From NCBI GenBank assembly GCA_963741215.1, contig CAVUHQ010000039.1, forward strand, positions 69,440 through 133,439: a DNA stretch of 64,000 nt, in the 5' to 3' direction. Positions 1-64,000 of the stretch are shown piece after piece (positions within the stretch are counted from its first letter, which is position 1; each line of letters opens with the position of its first letter). The notes beneath the pieces are model-generated. The model was not told where the DNA came from and did no database searches. It was given only the letters and a program-made list of their open reading frames with translations. A program made the translations under genes and the position numbers. Origin of the DNA: an uncultured beta proteobacterium (GTDB taxonomy: Bacteria > Pseudomonadota > Gammaproteobacteria > Burkholderiales > SHXO01).

Positions 1-5
1 GAGCC

Positions 6-302
6 ATGCTGGACGAGCTGACGCAACTCGACTTCGCACCTCTGGTGACCGATAGATTTCGGCTGGTCGAAAGCGACGTAACGCTGGACTTGGAGCTACT
101 CTCCGCAGAGGCCGCGACTGTCAGCGGCCATCAAGCTTCCGGGCGCGCACCTTTTTCGCTCGTCTTCCGCGGGCCGCACGAACCGCTGCTGCCCCAACGT
201 ATCTACCCCTTGCAGCATTCCGCCCTGGGCGTTCTGGACATCTTTCTCGTTCCCATCGGCCCCGACGAGTCAGGCCAGCGCTACGAGGCGGTCTTCTCCT
301 AA
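6..302 (+). CDS. small conserved hypothetical protein, cytoplasmic paralogue of 2749..3165
   Basis: 98-aa ORF. The C-terminal half aligns by eye with the 2749..3165 product (FSLVFRGP/LPQRIYPLQH/FLVPIG/YEAVFS versus FSIYFRTP/LPAGLYQVEH/YLEPVS/YRADFS). No signal peptide. It starts 5 nt from the window edge, so the true start may lie upstream. Confidence 0.55.
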   Translation: MLDELTQLDFAPLVTDRFRLVESDVTLDLELLSAEAATVSGHQASGRAPFSLVFRGPHEPLLPQRIYPLQHSALGVLDIFLVPIGPDESGQRYEAVFS

Positions 303-323
303 GATCCTGCGTCGCCACCGCGC

Positions 324-854
324 TCAGCTGCCAGGGCGGACCGTGCCTGGCGGGATCCAGATCATCTCCTTGTAGACCCCGTGGTCGGTTGTCGGCTGGA
401 ACGCGAGGCGTAAATAGAGGCGGATTGCGGCGTTGGACTGCTCGACGTGGATGATGATGGGCTTGCTCTGGCTGGCAGCCTCCGCCTGCAGCTCGCGCAG
501 GAGTGTTCCGCCGATGCCCGCCCCTCGGTACTCGGGCAGCAGCGCGATGTCGATTACGCGGATTTCCTGGTTGGACCGATCCACGTAAAAGCGGCCGGCA
601 GGATCTCCCTCCACCTCGACGACAGCGAACCGAGCCGCGGGAAAATGCGCGTGATAATAGCTGTGCTGCGCATTGAACTGCATGGTGAGGAAGACGTTCT
701 TCTGCTCCTCGCTCCAGCCGGTTAGCCGCAACTCCTCTTCCCGTGTGCTGGCGTAGACGCGAAATAAGAACGCGAGGTCCTGCTCGGAGGCGGCTCGTAG
801 AGCGATACCGGGGATCACAGTACTGCCCGCCTCCGGCCACAGTTGAAACGTCAT
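324..854 (-). CDS. GNAT-family N-acetyltransferase
   Basis: 176 codons from ATG 854 to stop 324, the lower part of ORF 324..1427. The acetyl-CoA site region IALLPEYRGAGIGGTLL followed by a beta-bulge-like segment is typical of GNAT. Co-directional with the collar genes. Confidence 0.85.
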   Translation of the reverse strand: MTFQLWPEAGSTVIPGIALRAASEQDLAFLFRVYASTREEELRLTGWSEEQKNVFLTMQFNAQHSYYHAHFPAARFAVVEVEGDPAGRFYVDRSNQEIRVIDIALLPEYRGAGIGGTLLRELQAEAASQSKPIIIHVEQSNAAIRLYLRLAFQPTTDHGVYKEMIWIPPGTVRPGS

Positions 855-916
855 CCGATGCGGCCACAGCGAGCCGCCGCGGGCCTGGATCCGTTGCAGA
901 GGGCGCCCGGTGACGC

Positions 917-1427
917 TTAGTTGCGGGCAGGAAATATCCCTTGGAGCGCGATGATGAAGTTCAGGGCGAGATAGGGCTGACGGTTGTCGTGCGGCTGCGA
1001 ATTGCCAGTGGGCAACACCGCCACGCCGGCCATGGGCACCAGATTGCCGGGCGGCCCGAAAATCTTCGCGGCCGACTGCCCAAGCACGCTGGCCCCGGGC
1101 GTATTTGTCGATGCGCCGGTCGACGCGGTCAGCTGGTGCGAATGGGCCGGTATCTGACCAAGGTTCAACGTCACAGTTTCCTCGCCGCCTTGCTCCCCAA
1201 GCGTACGGTTGGTGAGCCCTGGCCCCTGGCCTTGATGCATAGGCGAGCATCCGCGCAGGTCCGGCAGCGCGAAGTTGCGTCTTGCCATCGCCGCCATAGG
1301 TCGTACCTAGCAGCGAGAACAGCGCGGTGTTCTGCGAGATGGGAAACAACTGTCCGTTGCAAAACGCCCATCCCTTCGGCGCAAAGTTCCCCGCGAAGAT
1401 CCTGATTTCAGCGACGAATTGGTCCAT
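917..1427 (-). CDS. phage tail collar domain protein (MdpB-like), copy 1, read through one +1 frame break near 1278
   Basis: The N-terminus MDQFVAEIRIFAGNFAPKGWAFCNGQLFPISQNTALFSLLGTTYGGDGKT lies in the frame of ORF 324..1427. The remainder NFALPDLRG...PHDNRQPYLALNFIIALQGIFPARN lies in ORF 917..1297. Length is 511 nt (3n+1). Confidence 0.8.
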
Positions 1428-3260: not shown

Positions 3261-3387
3261 AAGGGGCCGCTGCAGAACGGGCGCCTGCTCCACGTTCACG
3301 CTCGGACGCGGGCTTGTACAATGGCGCGCTGTGTCGCTTCGGCGCCGCTGTATCGCCGTCCCACGAAAGACCCTTCCTGCCTGTCGA

Positions 3388-6300
3388 ATGAAACCTCGAG
3401 ATATCAATCTGCCCGATCGGACGCACGACGCCATCCACATCCAGGGGGCGCGCCAGAACAACCTCAAGAACCTCGACCTGCGTATCCCTTTGAACGAGCT
3501 GGTGGTCGTCACCGGTGTGTCGGGATCCGGCAAGTCGTCGCTGGTGTTCGACACGCTGTACGCGGAGGGCCAGCGACGCTACGTGGAGACGTTCTCGCCC
3601 TACGCCCGGCAGTTCCTGGACCGGATGGACAAGCCGCAGGTGGACCGCATCGACGGCATCCCGCCGGCCATCGCCATCGACCAGACCAACCCGGTGCGCA
3701 CCTCGCGCTCCACGGTGGGAACGATGACGGAGCTCAACGACCACGTGAAGCTCCTCTATGCCCGCGCCGCGCACCTCTATTGCCGAGGCTGCGGTCAGCC
3801 GGTCCGCCGCGACACGCCTGAGACAATTCTGGCCGAGTTGAGCGCGCAGGGCGGAAGGTGCGGGCGACCCGCGCTTGATCGTTACGTTCCCCGTGACGGT
3901 GCCGAAGAACTTCTCGCAGACGGAAGTGCGCCAGCTCCTCGAGCAGCAAGGCTATACGAGATTGCACTCGCACAAGGGCAACCTGCTGGAAGTCGTGCAG
4001 GACCGCTTCCGCGTGTCCGGGGTGGAGCGCTCGCGGATAGCGGAAGCGCTGGAAGCGGCGCTGCGCGTCGGGCAAGGCAAGGTGAACGTCTACGTGATTG
4101 CGGAGGAAAGTATCGCTGTCGCGAACCTTTCTGACGCGGCGGCGGATCAGACTTCGTCTTCATCCCAGGTCTCTCCCACAGCCGGAGAAGAGGCAACCGC
4201 ACCGCTCGGCGCGCAACCGGTGTGGCGCTTCTCGAGCGATCTCCACTGCGCCGACTGCGACATCCACTATCAGGACCCGACGCCGAGCCTGTTCTCCTTC
4301 AACTCGCCCATCGGCGCGTGCGAGACCTGCCGCGGCTTCGGCCGCTCCATCGGCATCGATTTCGGTCTGGTCATACCCGACGAATCGAAGACCCTGCGCG
4401 AGGGTGCCGTCAAGCCCTGGCAGACGCCGAGCTTCAAAGAATGTCAGGACGACATGGAGCGCTTCGTCCGCAAACGCGGTGTGCCGATGGACGTGCCCTG
4501 GCGCGATATGGCCGACGAGCATCGTGAATGGGTGCTGGAGGGCGATCCGGACTGGATCAGCTGGAGCAAGTCCTGGCCGGGCAAGTGGTACGGCGTGCGG
4601 CGCTTCTTCGCGTGGCTGGAGTCGAAGAGCTACAAGATGCACATCCGCGTCCTGCTCTCCAAGTACCGCGCCTACACCGCTTGCATCGCCTGCGAAGGCG
4701 CGCGGCTCAAACCCGATGCGCTGCTGTGGCGCCTGGGCACCAACGAGGACGCCGATGGAGTGCTGGCACCGGAGAAGCGGTTCCGGCCGCACGGATTCAC
4801 ACTTGCAGTGGACCAGCTGCAGGCCCTGCCGGGCTTGACGGTGCACGACCTCATGCTGCTGCCCGTCGACCGCTGCCGGGAGTTCTTCGCTCGCCTGCAT
4901 TTGCCCGCGCCACTGGATGAAGCGACCGATCTGCTCCTCACGGAAATTCGCGCACGCTTCGGCTATCTCAACCAGGTGGGCCTCGGCTATCTGACGCTCG
5001 ATCGCCAGTCGCGCACGCTATCGGGCGGAGAGGTCCAGCGCATCAATCTCACCACCGCGCTCGGCACCTCGCTGGTGAACACACTGTTCGTGCTGGACGA
5101 GCCTTCTATCGGTTTGCATCCGCGCGACATGGGCCGCGTGATCGACGTGATGAAGCACCTGCGCGACGCCGGCAATTCGCTGGTGGTAGTGGAGCACGAC
5201 CCGCAGATCATGCTGGAAGCCGACCGCATCCTCGACATGGGACCCGGTCCGGGAGAGCGCGGCGGCAACGTCGTTTTCTTCGGCACGCCGTCCGAGCTGA
5301 CGCGGATGCCAGGCTCGCTGACTGCGGACTATCTGGCGGGACGACGGCGCGTGGATGACAGATCCGAATCCTCGGCGCCGCAACCGCCGGCCGCGGCCGG
5401 AATGAAGGAGCCCGCCGATGCCGGTTCCATCGATATCCTCGGCGCCGCCGAACACAACCTGAAGGCGATCAACGTCGCCATCCCGCTGCATCGACTCGTA
5501 TGCATCACCGGCGTAAGCGGTTCGGGCAAGTCCACGCTGGTGCAGGACGTGCTGTACCCGGCGCTGCGCAAGCACAAAGGCAAGCCGACCGAGGCGCCCG
5601 GCGCCCATCGGGCCGTACTCGGCCACGACAGAATCGCGAATGTCGTGATGGTGGACCAGTCCCCGATCGGCCGCACCACGCGCTCCAACCCGGCCAGCTA
5701 CGTCGGCGCGTTCGATGCCATCCGTCAGCTCTTCGCCAAGGAGCCGCTGGCCAAGGGACGCGGCTATACGCCTGGCACTTTCAGCTTCAACTCGGGTAAT
5801 GGCCGCTGCCCCACCTGCGGGGGGAACGGCTTCGAGCACGTGGAGATGCAGTTCCTGTCCGACGTGTACTTACGCTGTCCAGACTGCGACGGCAAGCGCT
5901 ACCGGGACGAGGTGCTGGAGGTGACGCTGCGCAGGGAAGAGCATTGCCGACGCGCTCGAGATGACGGTGTCGCAGGCGGTTGCCTTCTTCTCCGAGCAGC
6001 CCGAGGTGCTCGCCGTGCTGCGGCCCCTCGCAGACGTGGGACTGGAGTACCTCAAGCTGGGCCAGCCCGTACCCACGCTCTCCGGCGGCGAGGCGCAACG
6101 GCTGAAGCTGGCAGGGCATCTCGCCGAGGCTGCGCGGCCTACTTCTCGCGCCCCGAGCACAGCGCGTCCAGCCTTAGCGCCTGCGCACGGGCGCGGGAGC
6201 TTGTTCCTGTTCGATGAACCGACCACCGGGCTGCACTTCGACGACATCGCCAAGCTGCTGAGAGCCTTTCGTCAATTGATTGCGGCAGGACATTCGCTGG

Positions 6301-9264
6301 TGGTAATCGAGCATAACCTCGACGTGATCGGCGCCGCCGACTGGATCATCGACCTGGGCCCCGAGGGCGGTGACGCCGGCGGCGAAGTCATGTGTGCCGG
6401 TACGCCGCAAGAGGTGGCCACGAACGCGCGCTCGTATACGGGCGTAGCTTTGCGGGACTACCGGGCGGCTCTGGTGAATCTGGCGGTCGCGAAGTCCGCT
6501 CTGCACCCGTTGCATGGAGGCGAGGATTTTCCAATTGCGGCACCGGCCGGCGTGCGCCTGAGCAACGGCTCCATCCATATCCACAACGCGCGCGAGCACA
6601 ATCTCAAGAACGTGGACGTGCAGATTCCGCGCGAGAAGTTCACGGTGATCACCGGAGTTTCGGGCAGCGGCAAGAGCACGCTCGCCTTCGATATCTTGTT
6701 CGCCGAAGGCCAGCGGCGCTACCTGGAATCGCTCAACGCCTATGCGCGCCAGTTCGTGCAGCCGGCTTCGCGCCCGGATGTGGACGCCATCTTCGGCATC
6801 CCGCCCACGGTCGCCATCGAGCAACGCACCAGCCGCGGCGGACGCAAGAGCACGGTCGCCACGCTGACCGAGATCTATCACTTCCTGCGGCTGCTGTTCG
6901 TCAAGCTGGGGACCCAGTACTGTCCCAACTGCGACGTGCCGATCGAGCCGCAGAGCTTCGAGGCCATCAGCGCGCGCCTGATGCGCAATTACCGCGGGCA
7001 ACACATCGGCCTGCTGGCGCCGCTGGTGGTGGCGCGCAAGGGCTACTACACGGATCTGGCCAAATGGGCCTCCGGCAAGGGCTATGCGCACCTGCGCGTG
7101 GACGGGGCGTTTCTACCAACCGCCAAGTGGCCGCGGCTGTCGCGCTTCCAGGAGCACAGCATCGAGCTGCCGGTAGCGGATCTGCGCGTGGAGCCGGCGA
7201 ACGAAGCAACGCTGCGCGAGGCGCTGACGCGCGCGCTGGAGTTCGGTAAAGGCGTAGTGCAGGTCATCGCGCCGCTGGATGGGCTCATGCAAGGCAACGC
7301 CAAGGTGACCGAGGCGACGTTCTCGACCAAGCGCGCCTGCCCTTCCTGCGGCACCAGCTTCCCCGAGCTCGACCCGCGGCTGTTCTCCTTCAACTCCAAG
7401 CACGGGTGGTGCGAGACCTGCTTCGGGACCGGATTGAAGCTCGGCGACATCGGCTGGGATGAGGAACGCGAGAGGACCGGGACCGAGGACCATGTCCTCG
7501 ACTCCTGGCTGGAATGGCTCGAGGTGGATGAGGCTTGCCCCGCGTGCGAGGGCAAGCGGCTGAATCCGACGGCGCTGCACGTCCGCTTCCAGGACCGCTC
7601 CATCGCCGACCTCACCGCCTTGCCGGTGGCCACGGTCGAGGGCTTCTTCCATGACATGCGCCTGGAAGGTCGAGGCGCCGAGATTGCGCGCGACATTCTG
7701 GCGGAGTTGAAGGCGCGCCTGTCCTTCCTGCAGGACGTGGGACTGTCTTATCTGGCCCTGGACCGCTCTGCACCGACGCTTTCCGGCGGCGAGGCCCAGC
7801 GCATCCGGCTGGCATCCCAACTCGGGTCCAACCTGCGCGGCGTGTGCTACATCCTGGACGAGCCCACCATCGGCCTGCATCCGCGCGACAACAGGATTCT
7901 GCTGGACACGCTGGCCAAGCTCGAAGCCAAGGGCAACACCTTGGTGGTGGTGGAGCACGACGAGGACACCATCCGTCACGCCGAGCACGTCATCGATCTG
8001 GGCCCTGGAGCCGGCACGCTCGGCGGGCAGGTGGTGGCGCAGGGCTCGGCCGCGGAATTGATGCGTCAACCCGATTCGCTCACGGGGCGATTCCTGGCGC
8101 ACCCGCTCAGGCACCCGATCCAGCCGCGCCGCGCGGTCGAGCGCAAAACGCCGCACATCGATGTGCTCGGCATGCGCCTCCACAACCTCAAGAACGCCGA
8201 CGTGCGCATCCCGCTCGGGCGGCTTACGGTCGTGACCGGTGTGTCGGGCAGCGGCAAGAGCACGCTGGCGCGCGACGTGTTGCATCAGAACCTGGTGCAA
8301 CTGCTGAGCAGCAGCCGGCGGCGGGCGCGACGTCGCGCTGTTCGGCTGCCGGCAGATCGAGGGCTGGGAACAAATCGGACGCGTCCTCGAAGTGGACCAG
8401 ACGCCGATCGGCAAAACGCCGCGCTCCTGCCCGGCGACGTATGTGGGTTTCTGGGACGCGATCCGCAAGATGTTCGCCGAGACCAACGAATCACGCATGC
8501 GCGGGTACGGCCCGGGGCGCTTCTCCTTCAACACCGCGGGCGGGCGCTGCGAATCCTGCGAGGGCCAAGGCCTGAAGACGATCGAGATGAGCTTCCTGCC
8601 GGACGTGAAGGTCACCTGCGAGGCATGCGGCGGCGCGCGCTTCTCGCCCGAGACGCTGATGGTGCGCTTCAAAGGCAAGAGCATCGGCGACGTGCTGGCC
8701 ATGAGCGTGGACGAGGCGGCCGACTTCTTCTCCGCCCATCGCTCGATCCATCATGCGCTCAAGCTGCTGCAAGACGTGGGGCTCGGTTATATCACGCTGG
8801 GTCAACAGAGCCCGACCCTGTCCGGCGGCGAGGCGCAGCGCATCAAGCTGGTTACGGAGCTGGCGAAGGTTCGCACGGATGTTTCTCACCCGTTCAAGGG
8901 GAGAGCCAACGAGGGCACGGGTTCTCGCGGCGGCGGGATTTCCACCCTTTACGTCCTCGACGAGCCCACCGTCGGGCTGCACATGGCCGACGTGGAAATG
9001 CTCATCCGCGTTCTGCACCGCCTGGTCGACGCCGGCAACACGGTAGTGGTCATCGAGCACAATCTAGACGTAATGGCGGATGCCGACTGGATCATCGACC
9101 TCGGCCCGGAGGGCGGCGATGCAGGCGGTGAGATCGTCGCGCAGGGCTCGCCCGAAGACATCACCGGACAGGATCGCGCTCCCGAGACGAGAGGCGGCGC
9201 GGCAGCGCGCTCGCACACGGCCGCGGTATTGAAAGGTTTCCTGGCGCAGCGGGGACGTGGTTGA
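3388..9264 (+). CDS. tandemly duplicated UvrA-family ABC ATPase (two complete UvrA units fused, about 1958 codons), three +1 frame breaks near 3850, 5933 and 8315
   Basis: Four UvrA-type Walker A sites: [66 protein letters not shown] and [18 protein letters not shown]. Four LSGGE(A/V)QR...DEP(S/T)xGLH segments. Zn-finger CxxC pairs are present. Homology continues across ORFs 3331.., 3875.., 5961.. and 8392... Confidence 0.9.
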
Positions 9265-9265: not shown

Positions 9266-10178
9266 ATGAAGCGTTTCATGCGGTGGCTCATCCGCATCGC
9301 CGCTGGCCTCCTGCTTCTGGTGGTTCTGGCCACGGGAGCCGTATTTGCGCTGAGTGAGATACGGCTGACCCGTACCTACCAGGTTCCGGCCGAAACCGTC
9401 GTGATTCCGCATGACTCCTGCCGGCATAGCGCGCGGGCAACACGTCGCGATCATCAGCGGGTGCGTCGACTGCCACGGCTCGAATCTCGCGGGCCGCGTG
9501 TTCTTCGAGAGTCCGATGATCGGCCGTTTCGTCGCCTCGAACCTCACCGCCGGGAAGGGTGGCATTGGCGGCAGTTTCACCGACCAGGATTGGATCCGCG
9601 CCATCCGCCACGGTGTCCAGCCGAGCGGAAAACCGCTGCTGGTGATGCCGGCCAGAGAGTATTACTTCCTGAGCGATGCCGATCTCGGGACGTTGATCGC
9701 TTACGTGAAGACGATCCCGCCGGTCGACAATGAGCTTCCCGCGAGTGCCGTATCCCCGATGGGACGCGTCTTGATGCTGGCCATCAAGGACATCGCGTTG
9801 CTGGGCGCTGAACGCATCGATCACACCGCGCCGCATCCAGTCGCGCCGGAGCCAGGAGTCACGCCGCAGTACGGCGGCTACCTCGCGGTGCGCTGCACCG
9901 GCTGTCACGGGGACACGCTGTCGGGCGGCAAGATCCCAGGCACTCCGCCGGACTGGCCGCCCGCCCTGAATTTGACACCCTATCCTGGCGCAGCTATCGC
10001 GGAATGGTCGCAGGACGAGTTCATCCGCACGCTGCGCACCGGCATCACCCCGCGCGGGAACCAGCTCGACACGAAGTACATGCCCTGGAAGGTGCTCGGC
10101 CAGATGACCGACGATGAGCTGAAGGCGCTCTGGCTGTTCCTAAGGTCGGCACCGCCGAAGGAGTACGGCGGCCGCTAG
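9266..10178 (+). CDS. membrane-anchored di-haem c-type cytochrome, one +1 frame break near 9415
   Basis: The N-terminal TM segment MKRFMRWLIRIAAGLLLLVVLATGAVFAL is in one frame. Two CxxCH sites (CVDCH and CTGCH) are in ORF 9411..10178. Length is 913 nt (3n+1). The ATG lies 2 nt after the UvrA-fusion stop. Confidence 0.8.
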
Positions 10179-10188
10179 TCGCCCCTAG

Positions 10189-11595
10189 CTAAGCGAATGC
10201 CCGCGGCTGCCCCGTCGCTTCGATAACCGACATCCACAGATCCATGCTGGGATCGACCTGCTTGCGGCTGCGCGTGGCGAGCGGCATCGGCACGTGCACG
10301 AAGCGCCCGTGCCAGCGGCCGATGAGGATCTCGGTGTTGCCCGCCATGGCAGCGTGGACTGCATTACGCGCCATGTTCCAGCAATAGACACTGTCCGACG
10401 GTGTCGCCGGCACGCTGCGAATCGTATAGCTCGGATCGATGTACTTCAGGGTCACGTCGCGGCCGGCGCGGTGGTAGTGCGCGGTGATCGTGTCCCGCAG
10501 ATACACGCCCACGTCCTTGAGCTTGGTATTGCCGCTCTTGTCGGTGCCCTCCGGGCCGTCGGCGATGAGATCCTGGGCTGCGCCTTCGGCGACCACCACC
10601 ACTGCATTCCCTTTGCGCGCGAGCACACGATCCAGGTAGGCGATGACGCCGCCCTCGCCTTCGAGAGTCGCCGGAATCTCCGGGATGAGGACCAGGTCGA
10701 CATCGGTGGACGCGACCGCCGCCTGGCAGGCGACGAAGCCGGAATGGCGCCCCATGAGCTTGACCAGCCCGATGCCGTAGCGCGCCCCCATGGCCTCCAC
10801 ACGCGCGCTGCGGATCACGTCCACCGCGGCCGAGTACGCGCTTTCGAAGCCGAAGCTGCGATCGATGAAATGGATGTCGTTGTCGATCGTCTTGGGGATA
10901 CCGACGACGGCGATCTTCAGGCCGCGGCGCTCGATCTCCGCGGTGATGTGCATCGCACCGCGGATGGTGCCGTCGCCGCCGACGACAAACAAAACGTCGA
11001 TGCCGTTGGCCTCCAGGTTGTCGACCACCTCCGCTGGATCCTGCGAACCGCGCGAGGAGCCGAGGATCGTCCCGCCCTGATGCTGGATGTGCGCGACCGA
11101 TTCCGGCGTCAGCGCCAGGGGTTCGTGGCCGAAGCGCGAGATCAGCCCTTCGTAACCATAGCGGAAACCGAAGATGCGCTTGACCCTGTAGCCGTGCGAC
11201 AACTCGAGCACGATGCCGCGCACCACGTTGTTGAGCCCGGGACACAATCCGCCGCAGGTGACGATGCCGCAGCGGACCGTGCGCGGATCGAAGAAGATGC
11301 GGTTGCGCGGCCCGGCCAGCTCGAAAGCCGGCAGCGCGCCGGGTTGTTCCGTGCTGATCGCAAGCTGCGACATGCGGTCATCGATCAGCACCTTGTCCGC
11401 GGCGCCGACGAACAGCATCGCGGTCTCGCCGAGGTGCGCAGCCACGGGTGAGGGCAGCAGGCACTTGCCCAGATCCTTGACCGCGACATCGGCGGGCGTA
11501 AGCGACGTGAGCAGCGTAGACGCGCCGGCCTTGACCGGTTCGACACTCGCGGCCGCAGGTGCAACGATGTTGACTGAGCGTACTGATTGACTCAT
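10189..11595 (-). CDS. pfk: 6-phosphofructokinase (PfkA family)
   Basis: Intact ORF from MSQSVRS. Motifs IVTCGGLCPGLN, VVGGDGTIRGA, GIPKTIDNDI and MGRHSGF are present. GGDG together with PKTIDND leaves ATP versus PPi specificity unresolved. Confidence 0.9.
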   Translation of the reverse strand: MSQSVRSVNIVAPAAASVEPVKAGASTLLTSLTPADVAVKDLGKCLLPSPVAAHLGETAMLFVGAADKVLIDDRMSQLAISTEQPGALPAFELAGPRNRIFFDPRTVRCGIVTCGGLCPGLNNVVRGIVLELSHGYRVKRIFGFRYGYEGLISRFGHEPLALTPESVAHIQHQGGTILGSSRGSQDPAEVVDNLEANGIDVLFVVGGDGTIRGAMHITAEIERRGLKIAVVGIPKTIDNDIHFIDRSFGFESAYSAAVDVIRSARVEAMGARYGIGLVKLMGRHSGFVACQAAVASTDVDLVLIPEIPATLEGEGGVIAYLDRVLARKGNAVVVVAEGAAQDLIADGPEGTDKSGNTKLKDVGVYLRDTITAHYHRAGRDVTLKYIDPSYTIRSVPATPSDSVYCWNMARNAVHAAMAGNTEILIGRWHGRFVHVPMPLATRSRKQVDPSMDLWMSVIEATGQPRAFA

Positions 11596-11815
11596 CCCAC
11601 TGATCTCGGGATAAGTCTGCCGGGGGAGGAAAATTCTTATTTGGTTGGGACCGAAGCTACGCCGCTGAGCCCCCGGTGTCAACGCCGCTCGCCGCCTTCC
11701 ACGTCCTGGAGAGCCTGTTACGGCGCGTCACGCACTGCGGCGGTGCGCGATCTCCAGCAGGTGCACGTACTCGATGCGCAGAAGCACGCGTTTGCAGTCA
11801 CCTTTGACGAGACCT

Positions 11816-13150: not shown

Positions 13151-13384
13151 TTGAGCTTCTCCTCCCTGGAGTTGTCGGACCAGTCTATCGGCTGGCTGGA
13201 ATGGTGCCGTCCCGGCCGCAAGGATCGCTGTTCGACCCGCAATGCGCAAGGCCTCCTGCAGCGAACGGGCTATGGCAGCTGACGATGAAGCGGCGCACTG
13301 CCAGGCGACAGCATACGGTCCGCGGTATCATTACAGGCTCGTAGCGCCCGCTCTGACCTCTACTGACCTTCCCCCGGAAGTCTC

Positions 13385-44512: not shown

Positions 44513-44572
44513 CCTCTTAACGCCTTCGTATAAAACTCGCCCAAATTAACCGACATCTCGGAGGAGCTGAAC

Positions 44573-50067: not shown

Positions 50068-50314
50068 GGTCGGCGCCCCCTTCACATCCTTGGAAGCAGG
50101 AACTGCTCCCGGGCACATGCGATAACCGACCCTCGCTTCCGGTAGCGCTCCCGTCGTGCCAGCAAGCGCTAGCACGCTGAATCTGCGGGTGTAGGGATTG
50201 TGAATTCAGGCCCGGCGCCCGTGGCCGGGTCAGCCCCTGGCCGTGGCCGACTCTTTGCTTTAGCGGCTTTATGTTCGACGCCACGGCAGCGATATCCCCC
50301 TTGAATAGCGCGCG

Positions 50315-52718: not shown

Positions 52719-52738
52719 TCGGCATGCAGCGACTCCAG

Positions 52739-53624
52739 ATGAAGCGGATGCTGCTGTTCGGCGCCTGCTGTGGCCTGCTGCTTGCCGCCATCGCTCGCGC
52801 GGAATTGGGGCTTCGACGCGGCTGCCGGATTCACCTACGACGACAACGCTGTCGAATGCGATCGAGGCCGAGGATCGGAAGGCAGACAGCGCGCATCACG
52901 CTCAACGTATCCGGCGGACTTCACGAGCAGCTTGGCGCGAGCACCGGGTCGGGCTTGAGCCTCGTCGCCGAATCGGCGTACTACCTGCGCTACTCCGGCC
53001 TGAGCAACCTCGGCCTGGGCGCGCTCGCGCAGCTGCGCCACAAGTTCGGCGCTGGGTGGCGATGCGCCCTGGGCGGCCGTTCTCGGCTCAGGCGATCCAC
53101 CGCAACTATCACTACGACTATCGCGACGGCTGGCAGTACGACGCCGCCGCGACCGCAGGCAAGCAGCTCGGAGAGCGCTGGAGCGTGCGCGCAAGCGTGC
53201 GCTACGACCGCTATCACCGCGGATCACCTGCAGCCCACGGTGCTGCCAGGCGTATCCACCGCGGCGTACGATACGTCGGGCTGGAGCTTCGGTGCCCAGG
53301 CCACTTTTCTCCTGACCGAGGCCGATCTGCTGTCGTTTCGTACACCTGGCGCAATGGCACGGTCACGGCGGTCACGCCGCCGGACGAGAAGTCCTCGAAT
53401 ACTCGAGCGCGGTCGCACGCGACCCGGTGTTCGGCGGCACGCCGCCTCTGATTGCGTACCGGATCGAGGCCAAGACCGATACGCTGTCGCTGACTTGGAG
53501 CCACACGCTTGGGTCGCCATGCGGCCGTCAATGTCGCCTATGCCTATCCGCGGAGCCGCACCGACTCCGATCTGGAGACTACTATTCCAACCTGATCAGC
53601 CTCAGCGTGAGCTACAGCCGGTGA
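52739..53624 (+). CDS. putative outer-membrane beta-barrel protein, frame breaks
   Basis: Signal peptide MKRMLLFGACCGLLLAAIARA, alternating beta-pattern segments, and a C-terminal YYSNLISLSVSYSR ending in an aromatic-x-basic pattern. Family not recognised. Confidence 0.4.
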
Positions 53625-54289
53625 TGACGACGCGCGTCGCATTGCTCGGTCGCATCCAGACCTGCCTGGCGCTGCTTGATGCCGTCGGCATCGGCCGCAC
53701 AGCTGCGTGCAGATCGTCTCGACCGCGACGGAAAACCGTTGCCGAATGCCGTGGTCGTGGCCGTCCCCGAGGATGGCCAGCTCCCGGCGCCGAAGCCGAC
53801 CGTGGAGATCGTCGACCAGATCGACAAGGAGTTCGTGCCCTACGTCAAGCCGGTGCGGGTCGGCGTCGTACGTGCAGTTTCCCAACAAGGACAACATCCG
53901 CCACCACGTCTACTCTTTTTCTGCCGCCAGGAAGTTCGAGCTGCCGCTCTACAGCGGCACGCCGGCTCAGCCCGTGCTGTTCGACAAGGTCGGCGTCGTC
54001 AAGCTCGGGTGCAACATCCACGACTGGATGATCGGCTACATCTACGTGACCGAGACGCCCTACTTCGGAAAGAGCAACGCGGAGGGCCGCGTCGATATGG
54101 ATCCAGCTGCCGCCAGGGCGCTATCGGGTACGCGTCTGGCATCCGCGCATGGAAGGATCCGAAGACGCGACGGTCAAGCATGTAGAGCTGCAGGATGCGA
54201 CTGCCGCTACGGTCGAATGGAAGCTCAAGCTCAAACCAGAGTTCAGGCCGCGGCGCATGCCGCTGCCCGGCGAGGCTGGATATCGCTAG
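53624..54289 (+). CDS. cupredoxin-like protein of the kind annotated as methylamine utilization protein, three +1 frame breaks
   Basis: FVPYVKPVRVGSYVQFPNKDNIRHHVYSFSAARKFELPLYSG...GCNIHDWMIGYIYV. The start ATG overlaps the preceding stop (GTGATGA). Confidence 0.5.
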
Positions 54290-54614: not shown

Positions 54615-54672
54615 GAGCGACTTGTAGTTCGGCGTCAGCCGGCGGACGCAGATGGGAGTATTCTTAGGCCCT

Positions 54673-54897
54673 ATGAAGATTGCTACTGGAAAGGTGATTG
54701 GCGGAAAGGTCGTGCTAGAGGGCACGGCCTTCGAGGAAGGCAGTTCCGTCACAGTCCTAGCTCGGGATGAGGAGGGTGACATCACCGTTACGCCTGAGGA
54801 AGAAGCCGAGCTTCTTCTCGCGATTGCCGAGGCAGATCGAGGCGAAATGGTTTCAGCGGAGGAAGTGCTCGCGAAGCTCGCGCGTCGTCGTGGCTAG
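54673..54897 (+). CDS. type II antitoxin (partner of ParE)
   Basis: MKIATGKVIGGKVVLEGTAFEEGSSVTVL...TPEEEAELLLAIAEADRGEMVSAEEVLAKL. An alternative start is ATG 54652. It ends 8 nt before the toxin start. Confidence 0.7.
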   Translation: MKIATGKVIGGKVVLEGTAFEEGSSVTVLARDEEGDITVTPEEEAELLLAIAEADRGEMVSAEEVLAKLARRRG

Positions 54898-54904
54898 CTG
54901 AGCC

Positions 54905-55198
54905 GTGAGAGTCCGGGTCACGAAGCGTGCGCAAGCGCAGATTGACCGAGCCGCCGTTTGGTGGGATGAGAATCGTGAGCTTGCGCCCGAAGCCTTCGAC
55001 GAGGATCTCGCCGAGGCTTTTTCACTTGTGAGCGTCGAACCGGGGATCGGCGCACCGGTCGCAAGTGCACGCATCCTAGGAGTGCGGCGTTTGCATCTAG
55101 CTCGAATTCATTGCTTCCTCTACTACCGAGTACATCGTGGAGAAGTGCACGTGCTGCGTATTTGGCACACAAGCCGAGGTAGTAGCCCTGCTTTGTAG
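54905..55198 (+). CDS. parE: ParE/RelE-family type II toxin
   Basis: GTG start, 97 aa. AQIDRAAVWWDENR and the C-terminal YYRVHRGEVHVLRIWHTSR pattern are typical of ParE. Confidence 0.8.
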   Translation: MRVRVTKRAQAQIDRAAVWWDENRELAPEAFDEDLAEAFSLVSVEPGIGAPVASARILGVRRLHLARIHCFLYYRVHRGEVHVLRIWHTSRGSSPAL

Positions 55199-56472: not shown

Positions 56473-56695
56473 GTGACACAAAGACGGAAGACGAAGTACA
56501 TCCACGAAGGGCAATTCGTTGCCGAGGTTGAAGGTTGAGGTTATTGAAGATGACTCCTCCTGGTCGCCCTACCTCTCTGTTGCTGACGCCACCCGACTTG
56601 ATAAGGTGCGCGACGCATCGTGCAGAGGCGACCTCAAGGCAGCTGCTTCTCTGGGTCGCGTGTACAGGCTTGAACCCGTAGCACCGACGCATTGA
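56473..56695 (+). CDS. small hypothetical protein (about 73 aa), one +1 frame break at about 56533
   Basis: Hand translation gives VTQRRKTKYIHEGQFVAEVE / VEVIEDDSSWSPYLSVADATRLDKVRDA..RGDLKAAASLGRVYRLEPV. It resembles a small conserved family I cannot name. Length is 223 nt (3n+1). Confidence 0.3.
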
Positions 56696-57077: not shown

Positions 57078-57570
57078 ATGCGCAACGCACTTGCAGTTGC
57101 CGCGTCTGGTCTGGTTGTTGCCGCCTTCTGTAGTTCGGTCGCCGCCCAGCAACTTCCGAAGTCGGGCAGCATCAGCGTCCACAGCGGCTATTGGGCCGTG
57201 GGCGAGTCGGTCGACTGTCGCCGAGAAGACTGTCCAAGGCCACGGCAACAATCGAGGCATCACGTTCAACGATAAAGGTTCAGGTCCGCTGCACCTTGGC
57301 CCTACTGATTGCTTCTACACGTTTTCTACCATTGCCGAGCGCACCAAAGTGAAGGGCTATTGCACCTTCGGCGACACCGATGGAGACCGCATATTCACCG
57401 ATTTCAAAGGTGCCTTTCAGCCCAGCGGCTATGTTGAGGGCACGCACGACGTGGACGGCGGCACCGGCAAGTACTCTGGCATCCAGGGCACCATGATGTT
57501 CAAGTGCAAGTACTCGGGCCCGAACGGCGAGCTCGAGTGCATTCAACGTTTAGACTATCGACTCCCGTAG
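57078..57570 (+). CDS. secreted Cys-containing hypothetical protein, paralogue A, one +1 frame break near 57215
   Basis: GGAGGAG Shine-Dalgarno sequence, signal peptide MRNALAVAASGLVVAAFCSSVAAQ, and DGGTGKYSGIQG near the C-terminus. Length is 493 nt (3n+1). Confidence 0.6.
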
Positions 57571-57690: not shown

Positions 57691-58162
57691 ATGAACGAGA
57701 GGGGGAAGTTCATCTATCTAGTAGTGCTGGCTGTTGGCTGTGGTGTGCCTGGCGTCAGTTTCGCCGGGAAAATGCGCTGGAAACAACATCAACAATCTGG
57801 TGTCATGGGAACCTACAGAGATATCCAAGGGGACCACGCTCGCCACTTTGCGGATAACAAGCGTCACCGTAAGTGACGATCCCAGCGCCGCCTATCACCT
57901 TGTGTCTGGCGAATGCGTCGGCAGTTTTCTGACTACTCCCGACGGAAAGACGCAGGGGAGTGGAAGTTGCGCGCGCAGGGACAAGGACGGCGATGTTCTG
58001 AACGAAGAGTGGGTTTCAACTGATGGCGCCGGGGCCAAAGGAACTTGGAAGAACGTGGGCGGGACCGGCAAGTTCGCCAAGGCCGCCTCTACGGGCCAGT
58101 GGGAATTTACTCAGTTGCAGGGGAAGATGGCTGCCGTGCGCTGGGTAGGCAACTGCCAGTAA
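57691..58162 (+). CDS. secreted Cys-containing hypothetical protein, paralogue B, one +1 frame break near 57775
   Basis: Signal-like N-terminus MNERGKFIYLVVLAVGCGVPGVSFA and VGGTGKFAKAAS near the C-terminus. Length is 472 nt (3n+1). Confidence 0.55.
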
Positions 58163-58345: not shown

Positions 58346-59063
58346 TCAGACACCCAGATAGCGATGCCAGAGCCCGTGATCCGCCGCAAGCTGCGCTCGA
58401 GCTCCCTCGCCAGGCCACTCGCCCGCGCTCGATGATGGTGTGGTGATCTGCGAGCGGGATCAGGCGCTCCACATATTTATCCACCACCAGGATAGTCTGG
58501 CCGGCCGTCTTCAACGCTGCCAGGCAGCGCCACACCTCTTCGCGGATCAGCGGCGCGAGTCCTTCGGTGGCTTCATCCAGGATCAGCAGATCAGGGTTGG
58601 TCATCAATGCGCGCCCGATCGCGAGCATCTGCTGCTCGCCGCCCGAGAGCTGATGGCCCATGTTCTGGATCCGCGCCGCGAGGCTCGGGAAGAACTCCAG
58701 CACCCGCTGCAGCGTCCAGGGGACCGGGCCGCCGCCACGGCTGTCGGCAAACGCAAGCAGGTTCTCGCGCACGCTGAGGTTGGGAAAGATCTGCCGCCCT
58801 TCGGGTACCAATGCAACGCCACGCCGCGCAATCTGGTCTGGCCGCAAATGCTCGATGCGCTCACCGCGCAGCGTAACGGTTCCGGCGTGCGGGGGCGTGA
58901 GGCCCAGCAGGGCGCGAATGGTGGTGGTCTTGCCCATGCCGTTGCGCCCCAGCAGTGTAGCCACCTCACCACGCTTGAGTTCGAGGTCGATCCCGAACAG
59001 GACCTGGCTCATGCCGTAGCCCGCCTCCAGTCCTTCGGCACGCAACAGCGGCTCGCTGGTCAT
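58346..59063 (-). CDS. livF: branched-chain amino acid (HAAT) ABC transporter ATP-binding protein, one +1 frame break near 58405
   Basis: Walker A GRNGMGKTT, signature LSGGEQQML, and Walker B LLILDE. The true tail AQLAADHGLWHRYLGV-stop is in the neighbouring frame. Length is 718 nt (3n+1). Confidence 0.85.
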
Positions 59064-59810
59064 GCCTCATCTCCGAGATACGCGCGCTTGACTTCCGCGT
59101 TGGCCCGAATCGCTTCCGGTGCTCCGGTCGCGATGATCCTCCCTGACACCAGCACCGAGATGCGATCGGCCAGGCGGAACACCGCATCCATGTCGTGCTC
59201 CACCAGCAGCACCGTCACGACACCTTTGAGCCCGGCGATCAGCTCGATCATGCGTTGCGACTCGTCGGGCCCCATCCCCGCCATCGGCTCGTCGAGGAGC
59301 AGCAGCCGGGCATCGGTAGCCAGCGCCAGTCCGACCTCGAGCTGGCGCTGCTCGCCGTGAGCCAGGGTGCCGGCGGTCTTGTGCTCGCGGCCCGCGAGGC
59401 CGACGCGAGCGGCAATCGCTTGCGCTTCCTCGGACAGCGCCGGTTCGTGCGCCAGCGGCCGCCAGAAGCGCACACTCGATCCGCTGCGGGCGAGCACCGC
59501 CAGCGTGAGGTTGTGCAGGACGCTGAAACGACGGAACACGCTGGTGATCTGGTAGGAGCGCGCCAATCCCAGCCGCACGCGTTCGTGCAGGCTGCGCGCC
59601 GTGATCTCCTGCCCGTCGAACAGGATCCTGCCGGCGTCGGGCTTGAGCGCGCCGGATAGCTGGTGGATGAACGTGGTCTTGCCCGCGCCGTTGGGGCCGA
59701 TGAGCGCGTGCAGCTCGCCGCGCTCGACGTCGAAGTCCAACCGGTCGGTCGCGACCAGGCCGCCGAAATGCTTTTGCAGCGCTCTCCGCCCGCAGCAGCG
59801 TGTCAGCCAC
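59060..59810 (-). CDS. livG: branched-chain amino acid (HAAT) ABC transporter ATP-binding protein, one +1 frame break near 59780
   Basis: GPNGAGKTT, LAHGEQRQLEV, LLLLDEP and the C-terminal VKRAYLG. Length is 751 nt (3n+1). Confidence 0.85.
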
Positions 59811-60747
59811 CGGCCGCCCTCCTCTGCGCCAGCGCTGCGATCAACCCGGCGAGGCCCTGTCGCGCATACAGCACGATGATCAGCAGCACCACGCCCAAGC
59901 CGAGCTGCCAGTGGATGGTGTAGCTGGACAGTACCTCCTCCAGCACCAGGAACACCACCGCGCCCAGCACGCCGCCGTACAGATAGCCGACGCCGCCGAG
60001 AATCACCATCAGCATGAGCGTGCCGGACTGGGTCCACTGGAGCAGGTTCGGACTCACGAAGCTGTTCTGGTTGGCGATCAGCGCGCCCGCGAGCCCCGCC
60101 ACTCCGCCGGCGATCACGAAGCAGATCAGCTTGTACCGGTAGGTGGGGAAGCCGATCGCTTCCATGCGCGTCTCGTTCTCGCGGATCGCCTGGATCACCT
60201 GGCCGAAGCGGGCGTTCAGCAGCCGCCGCAACAGATACAGCGTCGCCGCGAGGATGGCGAGTACAACGTAGTAGAAACTGAGGTCGTCCGCGAGGTCCAC
60301 GCCGAAGCCCAGGCGCGAGCGCGATGCGAGGTTGAGTCCATCCTCGCCGCCGTAGGCGCGCATGGAGATGAACAGGTAGTACATCATCTGGGCGAAGGCG
60401 AGCGTGATCATGATGAAGTACACGCCGCGCGTGCGCAGGGAGATGGCGCCAATCACGAGAGCGAGCAGCGCCGACACCAGCACGGCCAGCGGCCAGCTCA
60501 CCCAGGCGCTGCGCACGCCTTCGGCCATGAGTATCGCCACCGTATAGGCGCCGGCGCCGAGAAAGGCCGCGTGCCCGAAGCTCACCATGCCGCCGTAGCC
60601 CAGGATCAGATTCAAGCTGGTAGCCGCCAGCGCGAAGATGAGGATGCGCGCGGCGAAGCTCACATAGAACAGCTGGCCCCAGTGCTTCGCCGCCAGCGGA
60701 AATACGAGCAGCAGCAAGAGCACACCGATCGTGAGACGCTTATGCAT
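59803..60747 (-). CDS. livM: branched-chain amino acid ABC transporter permease
   Basis: Intact 314 aa with the typical LNLILGYGGMVSFGHAAF motif. Confidence 0.85.
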   Translation of the reverse strand: MHKRLTIGVLLLLLVFPLAAKHWGQLFYVSFAARILIFALAATSLNLILGYGGMVSFGHAAFLGAGAYTVAILMAEGVRSAWVSWPLAVLVSALLALVIGAISLRTRGVYFIMITLAFAQMMYYLFISMRAYGGEDGLNLASRSRLGFGVDLADDLSFYYVVLAILAATLYLLRRLLNARFGQVIQAIRENETRMEAIGFPTYRYKLICFVIAGGVAGLAGALIANQNSFVSPNLLQWTQSGTLMLMVILGGVGYLYGGVLGAVVFLVLEEVLSSYTIHWQLGLGVVLLIIVLYARQGLAGLIAALAQRRAAGG

Positions 60748-60794
60748 CGTCTTCAGCAGCCGCTAGTCAACCGCGCAGGTGCACGAAGCGCAAC

Positions 60795-61713
60795 TCACGC
60801 CCTCGCAGGGAACAGACCCTGCGGGCGCCAGAACAGCACGGCAACCATGAGCACGTAGATGGCGATGGAGGCGAGCGCGGGGCCGAGGCCCGACGCGACG
60901 GCCGGCGGCAGGATGCTGCGCAGCAGAGGAGGAAGCAAAGCGCGTCCGACCGTGTCCACCATGCCGACCAGCAGCGCCCCGACCATCGCGCCGCGGATGG
61001 AACCGATGCCGCCGATGACGATGACGACGAAGGCCAGGATGAGAATGCTCTCGCCCATCCCCACCTGCACCGCCAGGATCGGGCCCAGCATGGCGCCGGC
61101 CACCGCGCACAGCGCCGCTCCCACCGCGAACACCAGCGTAAATAGCATCCTGCACGTTGACGCCCATCGCGGTCGCCATCTCGCGGTTGGAAGCGCCGGC
61201 ACGCACGCGCATGCCGACACGTGTCTTCGCCACCAGCAGATACAGCAACACCGCAACGGCGAGTCCGACGCCGATGACGACCAGCCGGTAGGCCGGATAG
61301 TAGAAGTCCGGCAGCAGCTCAACCGGACCCGACAGCGCCGCGGGCATGTTGAGCATGAGCGGCTGCGAACCGAAGATCATGCGCACGACCTCGTTGCAGA
61401 TGAGCAGCAGCGCGAAGGTGGCGAGCACCTGCGACAGATGATCGCGAGTGTAGAGCTGGCGCAGGACCGTGAGCTCGAGCACCACGCCGATCACCGCCGT
61501 TCCCACCACCGCCCCAACGACTGCGAGCATGAAAGACCCGGTCGCCTGCGCTACGGACGCGGCCAGATAAGCCCCGATCATGTAGAGCGACCCATGCGCG
61601 AGGTTGATCATGTCCATGATCCCGAACACCAGGGTGAGGCCGGCGGCGAGCAAAAACAGCATCAGGCCGAACTGGAGGCCGTTGAGGGTTTGCTCCAGGA
61701 TCAGGACGGACAT
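60795..61713 (-). CDS. livH: branched-chain amino acid ABC transporter permease, one +1 frame break near 61150
   Basis: LTLVFGIMDMINLAHG is in ORF 60763..61713. The tail GGIGSIRGAMVGALLVG is in ORF 60795..61322. Length is 919 nt (3n+1). Confidence 0.85.
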
Positions 61714-61977
61714 CTGAAGAGCGTGAAGGGTGAAGAGTGAAGGGTGAAGAGTATGGAGCGTCAGTTCACGGGGCTACCGTTCCTTCGACTCCGGCGCTGC
61801 GCGCCCTAGTCCCGTTCGTCCTGAGCGTAGGGTGCGCAGCGCCCAGAGTCGAAGGATCACGACGAACGGATTCAGGTGTGTCAGCCATCGGACTCGAAGG
61901 ATCAGCGCGAACGGAGGATTTGAACCTGTCGCTTTCACCCTTTACCCTTCACTCTTCACTCTTCACTCTTCACACAT
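61714..61977. repeat. composite intercistronic repeat: heptamer arms around REP-like units, filling the binding-protein/permease spacer
   Basis: On the + strand there are (GTGAAGR)x4 at 61723-61750, units at 61777-61810, 61812-61869 and 61892-61914, and (YCTTCAC)x6 at 61932-61973. Confidence 0.8.
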
Positions 61978-63141
61978 TCACTTCAACGGACACTGCTCCA
62001 CATACACATCGGGATGATCCTTGAGCACGGTGCTCAGCGTCCTATTGGTGATGCGGCCCTTGCTGTCCCGCTCCACCACTCGCAGGTAGAAGTTCTCGAT
62101 CGGGAAGCCGTTGCGGTTGATCTTGAACGGGCCGCGTACGGACTTGAAATCGTTGGCGCGCAGAGCCTTGCGCACAGCCTCGGCATCCTCCACCTTTCCG
62201 TTCACTCCTCGCACTGCCGCGTCGATCGCCCGCGCGGCGTCGTAGCCTTGCGCCGCGTACCCGGTCGGCAGCCGCCCGTACTCCTTCTCGAAAGCCGCCA
62301 CGAAAGCCCGGCTCTCCGGGTTGTCCATGTCATGGTTCCAGAAACCGGTGTTGTAGATCCCGAGCATCGGCTCGCCCACGGCCGGGATGATGTCCTCGTC
62401 CACGGAAAACGCGGTGCTGATCAGCGTGACCTGCTTGCCGAGCCCGGACGCCGAGAACTGCTTGATGAAGTTGATGCCCATCCCGCCGGGCAGAAAGAAG
62501 AACACCGCATCGGGCTTCGCCGCACGGATCTGCGCCAGCTCCGCGGAGAAGTCGAGCTGTCCCAGCTTTGGATAGACCTCGTCGGCGACAGCGCCCTTGT
62601 AGAAGCGCTTGAACCCGGCCACCATGTCCTTGCCGGCCGGGTAGTTCGGTGACAACAGGAAAACGTTCTTGAAGCCTTTGTCCGCGGTGTATTTTCCTGC
62701 TGCCTCCATGGTGCCGTCGTTCTGCCACGCCATGCTGAAGAACCATGGGCTGCATTGCGCTCCCGCAAGCAGCGACGGGCCGGCATTCGCGCTGATCAGG
62801 AAGGTCTTGCTCTCGAACACCGCGGGCGCCACCGCGAGCAGCACGTTGGAGAACACGATGCCGGTGACGAAGTCGACATGGTCGCGCTTGAGATACTTGT
62901 CGACGATCTGGCGGCCCACATCCGGATTCTGCTGATCGTCGTTGACGATCACCTCGGCGGGCAGGCCGCCCAGCTTGCCGCCGCTCGTCTTCAGCCCCAG
63001 GTTGAAGCCGTCTCGAATGTCGGTCCCGATGGCAGCGCCCGGTCCGGACAGGGTGCTGACGAAGCCGACCTTGACCTTGTCGGCGGCCTGGACGGACGCC
63101 GCGAACAGCATCGCCAGCGCCGCCAGAATTGTTGTTTTCAC
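61978..63141 (-). CDS. periplasmic branched-chain amino acid-type binding protein (Peripla_BP_6-like)
   Basis: The preferred start is GTG 63141, after a GGAGG Shine-Dalgarno sequence. Signal peptide VKTTILAALAMLFAASVQA. KVGFVSTLSGPGAAIG is present. Intact. Confidence 0.85.
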   Translation of the reverse strand: MKTTILAALAMLFAASVQAADKVKVGFVSTLSGPGAAIGTDIRDGFNLGLKTSGGKLGGLPAEVIVNDDQQNPDVGRQIVDKYLKRDHVDFVTGIVFSNVLLAVAPAVFESKTFLISANAGPSLLAGAQCSPWFFSMAWQNDGTMEAAGKYTADKGFKNVFLLSPNYPAGKDMVAGFKRFYKGAVADEVYPKLGQLDFSAELAQIRAAKPDAVFFFLPGGMGINFIKQFSASGLGKQVTLISTAFSVDEDIIPAVGEPMLGIYNTGFWNHDMDNPESRAFVAAFEKEYGRLPTGYAAQGYDAARAIDAAVRGVNGKVEDAEAVRKALRANDFKSVRGPFKINRNGFPIENFYLRVVERDSKGRITNRTLSTVLKDHPDVYVEQCPLK

Positions 63142-63199
63142 GGTGAGCCTCCCTGCGTTAAGTGCTGCGCGGAAGTGTAGCGTAAAGCTGCGGCGCGCC

Positions 63200-64000
63200 T
63201 CACCAGTCCTCTCGCACCGCCCGCACAACGTCTCCACCCATGGCCTGCCTGCCGCTTACGGCGGCGGTAACGGTCGCCAGCGCCAGCATCACGAACGAGA
63301 ACAAGACGAGCCCCGTCCACGGGACATGCAGCTCCATGCTCCAATGAAACGACTGGCGGTTGACCACGTGGATCAGGATCAGGCTGATCAACCACCCGAG
63401 AGCCAGCCCCACCGCAAGGCCGAGCGCGCTGGACAGCAAACCTTCCGCACCCAGCATGGCCGCGATCTGCCGCCGGGTCATGCCGATGTGCCGCAGCATG
63501 CCGAACTCGCGGCGCCGCGCCAGCACCAATGCCGTCACACTGCCGGACAGGCTGAACAGCCCGATCAGGATGGCGCAGGCCTCTAGCGCGTAGGTGACGG
63601 CGAAGGTACGGTCGAAGATGGTCAGCGAAATCCGGCGGATCTCGCCCGGCTCCGACAACTCGATCCGCTCGCCGTTGGGGACGCTATCCCGCAGCGCGCG
63701 GCTCAGTCGGGCCACGTCCATCCCCGGCGCGAGCCAGAGCCCGGCATCGGTTGCCACGCGGTCGCCGGTCAATTGGATGTACAGCGCCCGGTCGATCAGG
63801 AGTGCGCCGTTCTGCCGTGCATAGTCGCGCCAGATGCCGGCGACGGTGAAGGGCAGACTCCGTCCTGCCAGCGGCAGCGCAACACGCGCACCGGGACGCA
63901 GGCCGAACATATCCGCGACCGGCTCCGTGATCCACACCGGCGGCGGATCACCCGGCGCCGGCCGCACCACCGCAGAGACCAGCGGCAGAACGGTTTCGGC
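63200..64000 (-). CDS. FtsX-like ABC transporter permease, C-terminal part (5-prime end outside the window)
   Basis: RREFGMLRHIGMTRRQI followed by three TM segments. The frame stays open to the window end. Confidence 0.75.
   Translation of the reverse strand, partial: AETVLPLVSAVVRPAPGDPPPVWITEPVADMFGLRPGARVALPLAGRSLPFTVAGIWRDYARQNGALLIDRALYIQLTGDRVATDAGLWLAPGMDVARLSRALRDSVPNGERIELSEPGEIRRISLTIFDRTFAVTYALEACAILIGLFSLSGSVTALVLARRREFGMLRHIGMTRRQIAAMLGAEGLLSSALGLAVGLALGWLISLILIHVVNRQSFHWSMELHVPWTGLVLFSFVMLALATVTAAVSGRQAMGGDVVRAVREDW

Follow-up and report, generated by a model that had tools for sequence, protein, structure and literature searches.

Bacterial genomes in which many genes are broken are known from reductive decay, as in Mycobacterium leprae and in recent host-restricted symbionts, and bacterial pseudogenes show a deletion bias. 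Shifts of the reading frame by +1 may also be programmed, as in bacterial prfB or, genome-wide at stop codons, in Euplotes, and in Nanopore data the errors of the consensus are mostly deletions in homopolymers. Here, we analysed the frame-broken genes in a 64,000-nucleotide (nt) stretch of DNA, hereafter the window (G000:C39:69440-133439), which belongs to the metagenome assembly G000 of an uncultured beta proteobacterium. The window is similar to a decaying genome in its large fraction of broken genes and in the many lesions found in some of them. It is unlike reductive decay in that the breaks extend to essential genes, nearly all of the damage consists of single-base lesions with a bias toward insertion, nonsense codons are nearly absent, the sites lie outside homopolymers and the pattern follows assembly type. 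With programmed frameshifting it shares the +1 downstream frame at most junctions, but slippery and stop-adjacent motifs are lacking, orthologues do not share the sites, and -1 breaks and nonsense codons occur among the +1 breaks. The homopolymer-deletion pattern of Nanopore data was not seen.

The problem of indel frameshifts in long-read metagenomes has been described in the proovframe preprint, which gives raw PacBio errors as approximately 8% insertions, 3% deletions and 2% substitutions. The frameshifts at which proovframe is aimed, in metagenome-assembled genomes (MAGs) from PacBio continuous long reads (CLR) or Nanopore reads, are like those of the window in that single-base indels split conserved genes, marker completeness is lowered and the errors persist where polishing is weak. 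The raw PacBio profile is likewise similar in the excess of insertions over deletions and in the rarity of substitutions. Judged from assembled sequences and their comparison rather than from reads, the breaks are very probably a technical artefact, consisting of single-base consensus errors left over in an inadequately polished long-read metagenome assembly, and it is just as probable that they are not a biological feature.

The breaks are predominantly single extra bases

The source assembly G000 comprises 4.8 Mb with a G+C content of 64%, distributed over 40 contigs, one of which is 1.0 Mb long; its marker-gene completeness is 71% and its contamination 0.6%. The nearest public relatives are uncultured Burkholderiales-type MAGs. 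The best relative at the nucleotide level, the 490-contig assembly G030, is 82-90% identical over approximately 23 kb of the window, and the nucleotide alignment between the two covers 22.8 kb. In a first pass, the intact open frames of relatives were compared with the window by tblastn, which revealed individual proteins running on across adjacent frames; the 1,904-amino-acid (aa) orthologue of the UvrA fusion, for example, passed through frames 1, 2, 3 and 1, and nrdJ changed frame many times. A seven-state ab initio tracker, trained on long open reading frames (ORFs) of G000 itself, was employed for genome-wide counts. Coarse frame tracking on its own was rejected, since two nearby -1 events mimic one +1 event (e.g., 44105-44161). 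As the coarse tracker can therefore mis-sign events, a protein-to-DNA aligner was written with explicit moves for +1 (one extra base) and -1 (a codon short of one base), and it was validated on synthetic data. Each gene was aligned with as many as six references, drawn from assemblies without the +1 excess described below. The nrdJ intein (14259-15404) and a large adhesin gene (45.7-49.1 kb) were excluded from the tally because low similarity and internal repeats prevent reliable signing.

According to tblastn and frameshift-aware alignment, approximately 27-29 of about 53 genes were frame-broken, with homology resuming in an adjacent frame, in agreement with the roughly 25 of about 50 genes given in a preliminary description made from the sequence. 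In the net count, a minimum of 62 well-supported +1 events stood against 16 or more -1 events and no more than four in-frame nonsense codons. Of these codons, the ones at 44319 (TAG in place of W) and 24347 (TAG in place of E) were clear, and those at 50307 and 14807 were doubtful. The preliminary description had taken every resolvable break for a +1 event, which proved incorrect, as the -1 events at positions 16317, 16351, 19181, 21124, 44028, 44106, 44161, 44287, 45198, 49318, 49845, 49880, 50695, 53334, 53387 and 53573 were backed by all or most references. The resulting +1:-1 split of approximately 78:22 corresponds to a strong insertion bias rather than to a uniform polarity or to a balanced mix.

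Fourteen genes had been put forward as carrying a single extra base each. This was found for 12 of them, and for the remaining two (27474-27849 and 56473-56695) a usable reference was lacking. In the 11 aligned genes, the +1 events were located at 1280, 27423 (weak support), 28718, 31381, 39419, 40551, 57213, 57766, 58397, 59783 and 61152, while the twelfth, at approximately 9402, came from frame tracking alone. The three breaks in the UvrA fusion and the three in gene 53576-54289 were all +1, as previously described. The four breaks reported for nrdJ (13538, 14157, 14206 and 14255) were +1 as well, although that list was far too short, since at least 16 +1 events were present in the exteins.

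The preliminary description had also argued from gene lengths of 3n+1. Such a length cannot prove an insertion, because two deletions leave the same remainder, and gene 43403-44483 is a case in point. Each of its four consecutive -1 events, as well as the +1 event at 43970, was supported by six of six references, and the residue-level alignment showed one residue short of a base at every one of the four -1 sites. An insertion-only model of this gene was rejected, as it scored 53 points worse and required paired insertions together with residue deletions.

The break sites share no motif and occur in patches

Aligned with G030, the window showed an isolated extra base at 36 positions and lacked a single base at 17, in some cases between genes. 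The composition of the inserted bases was close to genomic, and 9 of the 36 matched a neighbouring base, compared to roughly 47% expected by chance. Homopolymers were not enriched within 4 nt of the events, the run lengths being the same as at random positions; a run of at least four was found within this distance at 3% of the sites, equal to random positions. When the surroundings of 60 +1 sites were aligned in coding orientation, no shared motif was detected; beyond the signal of codon periodicity, no position held more than 0.2 bits of information. The earlier statement that the sites have no motif and few homopolymers was thus upheld. The old frame remained open for a median of 278 nt past the +1 site, and only 2 of 60 sites were located within 6 nt of an old-frame stop. 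Rescue by transcriptional slippage at poly-A/T tracts was not supported, as long homopolymer tracts were lacking at the sites.

The event counts were over-dispersed, with a variance-to-mean ratio of 2.5 and an autocorrelation extending to approximately 6-9 kb, and the +1 and -1 counts climbed together. The events were grouped in patches of about 5-10 kb with edges inside genes. Gene 43403-44483 was densely affected between 43970 and 44393 and clean between 43403 and 43970, and in pepN the first 600 nt were affected and the next 1.8 kb or so were clean. The uneven density noted in the preliminary description was evident, with approximately 50 breaks in the region of 43.4-54.3 kb and none at 10.1-13.3 kb and 32.4-34.2 kb. 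Its larger break-free region was reproduced as far as 34.2 kb; from there to 38.9 kb no breaks were detected, in a segment lacking references for alignment.

The same signature is found elsewhere in the assembly and in some of its sister assemblies

Across the whole of G000, the tracker recorded 2,681 +1 and 1,297 -1 same-strand frame switches, i.e., 5.6 and 2.7 per 10 kb. The total number of events in the genome is estimated to be a few thousand. The corresponding values for the control loci (1.2 Mb) were 0.97 and 1.38 per 10 kb, the -1 background being high mostly because naturally overlapping neighbour genes mimic -1 events. The ileS and secA genes were each spread over three frames with both steps +1, and gyrA was split into at least three pieces.

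The +1 excess was sampled over 100 kb each in the first seven genomes and over 20-40 kb in the others. The few-contig, 64-84%-complete assemblies of sister species showed 7.9 (G033), 5.4 (G005), 4.1 (G032) and 3.6 (G034) +1 switches per 10 kb, whereas six high-completeness assemblies of the genus showed 0.6-1.8. The +1 excess is thereby linked to the type of assembly and not to phylogeny. The 807-aa gene, with approximately 17 events in the window, had one event in G033 and none in G032, G002, G026 and G011. The pepN gene had three events in the window, nine +1 events in G033, none of them at the positions seen here, and no events in six further genomes. In the aligned fragmented or high-completeness assemblies of the genus, G030 included, the open frames were uninterrupted at the sites tested. 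Insertions common to orthologues were not found, the break positions differing from those of the relatives, and on the basis of these alignments the breaks appear to be private to this assembly.

The rRNA loci examined were C12:52500-58972 (L197), C13:1-6000 (L198) and C35:1-6000 (L199). The 23S rRNA genes spanned 3,260 and 3,617 nt, compared to a model of 2,925 positions, and contained intervening sequences, one of which encodes an ORF of approximately 95 aa. This ORF was intact on C13, and its copy at the end of contig C35 required four +1 steps. One copy of the intervening sequence carried 4-5 extra single bases relative to another, and the shared 23S core had three singleton extra bases, although these numbers are small and substitutions also differ between the copies. 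The rRNA copies within the bin differed by 2-4%.

Contig ends overlapped at 98-99% identity with mismatches and single-base gaps (C3:1-4792 versus C31:1-4787, and the ends of C9 and C35), which points to repeats or variants between strains that were left unresolved where the assembly breaks.

Residual consensus errors as the proposed explanation, and its competitors

The proposed explanation would involve errors that are mainly spurious extra bases (approximately 78%), with fewer missing bases (approximately 22%) and rare substitutions. They would be placed at essentially random non-homopolymer positions and concentrated in patches of 5-10 kb, probably where few or discordant reads backed the consensus, and the true genes of the organism would almost certainly be intact. 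The properties of G000 (4.8 Mb in 40 contigs, a contig of 1.0 Mb and 71% completeness) are typical of an assembly from long reads in which marker genes are broken. The 78:22 split and the proportions of insertions, deletions and substitutions resemble the raw PacBio profile, and the insertion:deletion ratio may be likened to that of raw CLR data. The preliminary description had preferred an artefact of the consensus or assembly, biased toward insertions, to gene decay, and this view was supported despite the non-uniform polarity.

Several observations weigh against this explanation. The rpoB, rpoC, fusA and tuf genes were intact over approximately 11.6 kb, which is mildly unexpected for randomly placed errors; to explain it, the errors must be patchy or the conserved genes better supported by reads. 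Event-dense genes were more divergent from G030 than event-poor ones (76-87% versus 89-97% amino-acid identity), as real decay would likewise predict. In dN/dS, random errors and relaxed selection would produce the same shift. The clean state of these four genes and the divergence of the event-dense ones would both fit better read support in conserved regions. The avoidance of neighbour duplication goes beyond chance and could be matched neither to a documented error mode nor to a specific platform or polisher. Finally, the support comes from assembled sequence, and the extra bases might be present in the molecules themselves.

A variant of the artefact, in which the errors arise chiefly where co-assembled strains differ and the mixed-haplotype consensus is poor, so that low coverage alone is not the cause, has some claim to attention, although we regard it as unlikely. 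The clustered patches also carry more substitutions relative to G030, the conserved rpoB, rpoC, fusA and tuf genes are clean, and the differences of 2-4% in contig-end overlaps and rRNA copies within the bin point in its direction, but strain mixing does not on its own predict the 4:1 insertion bias. Genuine gene decay, i.e., massive pseudogenisation in which the indels are real mutations, would accommodate the clustering of breaks by gene in places (at least 18 in nrdJ and approximately 17 in the 807-aa gene), the integrity of some core genes and the greater divergence of event-dense genes. We nevertheless consider it very improbable. The essential single-copy genes ileS, secA and gyrA are broken, and a living cell cannot lose all three, which excludes ordinary pseudogenisation. 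The lesions are nearly all single-base and lean roughly 4:1 toward insertion, opposite to the deletion bias of bacterial pseudogenes. At least 78 frameshifts are accompanied by at most four nonsense codons, there is no association with homopolymers, and the patch edges fall inside genes. Moreover, the same signature affects different genes in the other few-contig assemblies of sister species and is absent from the fragmented or high-completeness ones tested.

The placement of the extra bases at motif-free, non-homopolymer positions, together with their near-genomic composition, would fit simulated noise, as from a deliberate or accidental introduction of synthetic indels into the deposited record after assembly. 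The probability of such a perturbation, whose deliberate form had been named as an alternative in the preliminary description, is as low as that of decay. Instead of being spread uniformly, the events show strong clustering; their proportions of insertions, deletions and substitutions match the raw error profile of a real platform, and the same excess is found in four other public assemblies representing different species of the genus. Deliberate perturbation is unnecessary in view of the clustering and of the signature shared with other public assemblies of the genus. Programmed recoding would account for the strong +1 predominance: ribosomes might shift by +1, tRNAs might decode quadruplets, or the surplus base might be taken out of the RNA. 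With the DNA taken as correct, the affected essential genes have to remain expressed. Recoding has, in our estimation, an even slighter chance of being correct. There is no common motif across the 60 sites, and the distances to the old-frame stop (2 of 60 sites within 6 nt, median 278 nt) do not suit it; approximately 22% of the events are -1, and neither these nor the nonsense codons could be rescued by a +1 mechanism. The sites are not conserved, as the relative at 87-90% nucleotide identity lacks the extra bases and the sites in G033 differ, and extra bases appear to occur in an rRNA intervening sequence as well. The lone tRNA call with a four-base anticodon, tRNA-???(caag) of 96 nt at G000:C17:94032-94127, was discarded as a candidate for quadruplet decoding; this ARAGORN prediction has a poor acceptor stem in GC-rich sequence and is most likely a false positive. 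A similarly negligible probability is assigned to the extra bases being real in this and some sister lineages, either with a context-independent +1 correction by RNA or ribosome or with an insertion-prone replication defect in a population carried by intact copies elsewhere.

ARAGORN predicted 40 tRNAs in G000, with none for Asn or Asp. Several of these predictions are dubious, and the census is too weak to be used either way.

Every annotation of G000 has to be read with the help of frameshift-aware alignment. Its gene calls, domain architectures, “pseudogenes”, small novel ORFs and apparent fusions or truncations are all unreliable. The same caution is probably due for G033, G005, G032 and G034. 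The 71% completeness of this 4.8-Mb, 40-contig assembly would itself be due to these errors. The value of the result is that of a warning label for G000 and the sister assemblies with the same signature, not of a biological discovery.

Individual genes of the window

The breaks assigned to individual genes, together with the break-free stretches, are listed in Table 1.

Table 1. Frame breaks in genes of the window (+1, one extra base; -1, one missing base).
Feature	Position	Strand	Breaks	Evidence
Tail-collar-like paralogue	917-1427	-	one +1 at about 1277-1283	two intact neighbour paralogues (1456-1959, 1987-2496)
UvrA-fusion gene	3352-9250	+	three +1: 3847, 5930, 8322-8343	intact orthologues of 1,904-1,956 aa
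Cytochrome c gene	9266-10178	+	+1 at about 9402	tracker switches +2 to +0; Pfam Cytochrom_C in downstream piece only; no orthologue alignment
Break-free stretch, PFK gene and neighbour	10126-13269	-	no supported events	up to 72 references
nrdJ (class II ribonucleotide reductase) with intein	13385-17396	+	exteins, at least 16 +1: 13538, 14157, 14206, 14255, 15371/86, 15462, 15481, 15572, 15780, 15805, 15845, 16110, 16787, 16800, 16999, 17165; two -1: 16317, 16351	up to six references agree from 15462 on; 13538-14255 from one reference in that run
Gene	18880-19835	+	about 6-7: -1 19181; +1 19361, 19605, 19687, 19760; near 19250 two +1 or one -1	G002 and G032 orthologues
Gene	19892-20657	-	+1 at 20585	protein alignment; G030 nucleotide alignment, extra C at 20586
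pepN	20850-23605	+	-1 21124; net -1 in variable insert at about 21400-21490; +1 23305	6/6 references for 21124 and 23305; G030 DNA, base missing at 21123, extra T at 23306
Gene	23688-24714	-	+1 at 24219; in-frame TAG at 24347	
Solute-binding protein gene	26685-27477	-	one near 27423-27441, sign weakly resolved	
PQQ dehydrogenase gene	28000-29779	-	+1 at 28718	G030 orthologue, 94% identity; nucleotide alignment, extra G at 28719
GMC oxidoreductase gene	30580-32272	-	+1 at 31381	6/6 references
Break-free stretch, eda and kdgK	32467-34204	+	none	protein-to-DNA alignment
Gene	38960-40302	-	+1 at 39419	4/4 references
Gene	40488-41460	-	+1 at 40548-40551	reference at 97% identity
Gene	43403-44483	-	+1 43970; -1 44028, 44106, 44161, 44287; +1 near 44393-44435; nonsense TAG at 44319	
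Amidase-like gene	44554-45638	+	-1 45198; +1 45268, 45500, possibly 44569	5-6 references; G030 DNA agrees
Large RTX/cadherin-repeat surface adhesin	45748-49079	-	at least six open frames; signs not assigned (internal repeats)	tracker alternates
Gene	49279-50125	-	three -1: 49318, 49845, 49880	G030 and G002 references
807-aa gene	50279-52715	+	about 15 +1: 50639, 50765, 50880, about 50912, 50927, 51243, 51433, 51578, 51660, 52219, 52421, 52545, 52615, additionally about 52645/52653 (weaker support); 1-2 -1: 50695, possibly 52667	4-6 references agree on +1 from 50639 to 52615
Gene, no function assigned	52690-53625	+	seven +1: 52805, 52848, 52894, 53051, 53082, 53215, 53508; three -1: 53334, 53387, 53573	intact G030 open frame; nucleotide alignment concurs
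Gene	53576-54289	+	three +1: 53672, 53865, 54103	
Secreted small protein gene	57078-57570	+	+1 at 57213	G025 orthologue
Paralogous secreted small protein gene	57691-58162	+	+1 at 57766	orthologue alignment
ABC-transporter operon	58346-61713	-	+1 at 58397, 59783, 61152; gene 59806-60750 intact	

The insert in nrdJ, termed an intein, is approximately 1.15 kb long (14259-15404). The relative L013, whose protein has 1,323 aa, also contains an insert at this position, and the other relatives (about 950 aa) do not. In the adhesin gene, the Pfam domains Big_9, Cadherin_4/5 and HemolysinCabind were found on separate pieces.

Opposite the break-free minus-strand gene 11816-13249, which is 79-85% identical to its relatives, a plus-strand ORF of 502 aa extends from 11774 to 13282. 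It was dropped as a gene, being the shadow of the true gene on the minus strand, and illustrates the origin of long spurious ORFs at such a G+C content. The region of the GMC oxidoreductase, eda and kdgK genes (30552-34400) has a second copy at G000:C27:4577-10141 with 90-96% nucleotide identity. This copy is a block of paralogues or, alternatively, DNA of another strain placed in the same bin. The G+C content dips to 59.6% between 36000 and 40000, compared to approximately 64-66% elsewhere. On the plus strand at 54652-55198, two adjoining intact small ORFs of 81 and 97 aa have a toxin-antitoxin-like appearance; they are located within a segment of atypical codon usage, and the tracker labels 54.1-57.2 kb as non-coding.

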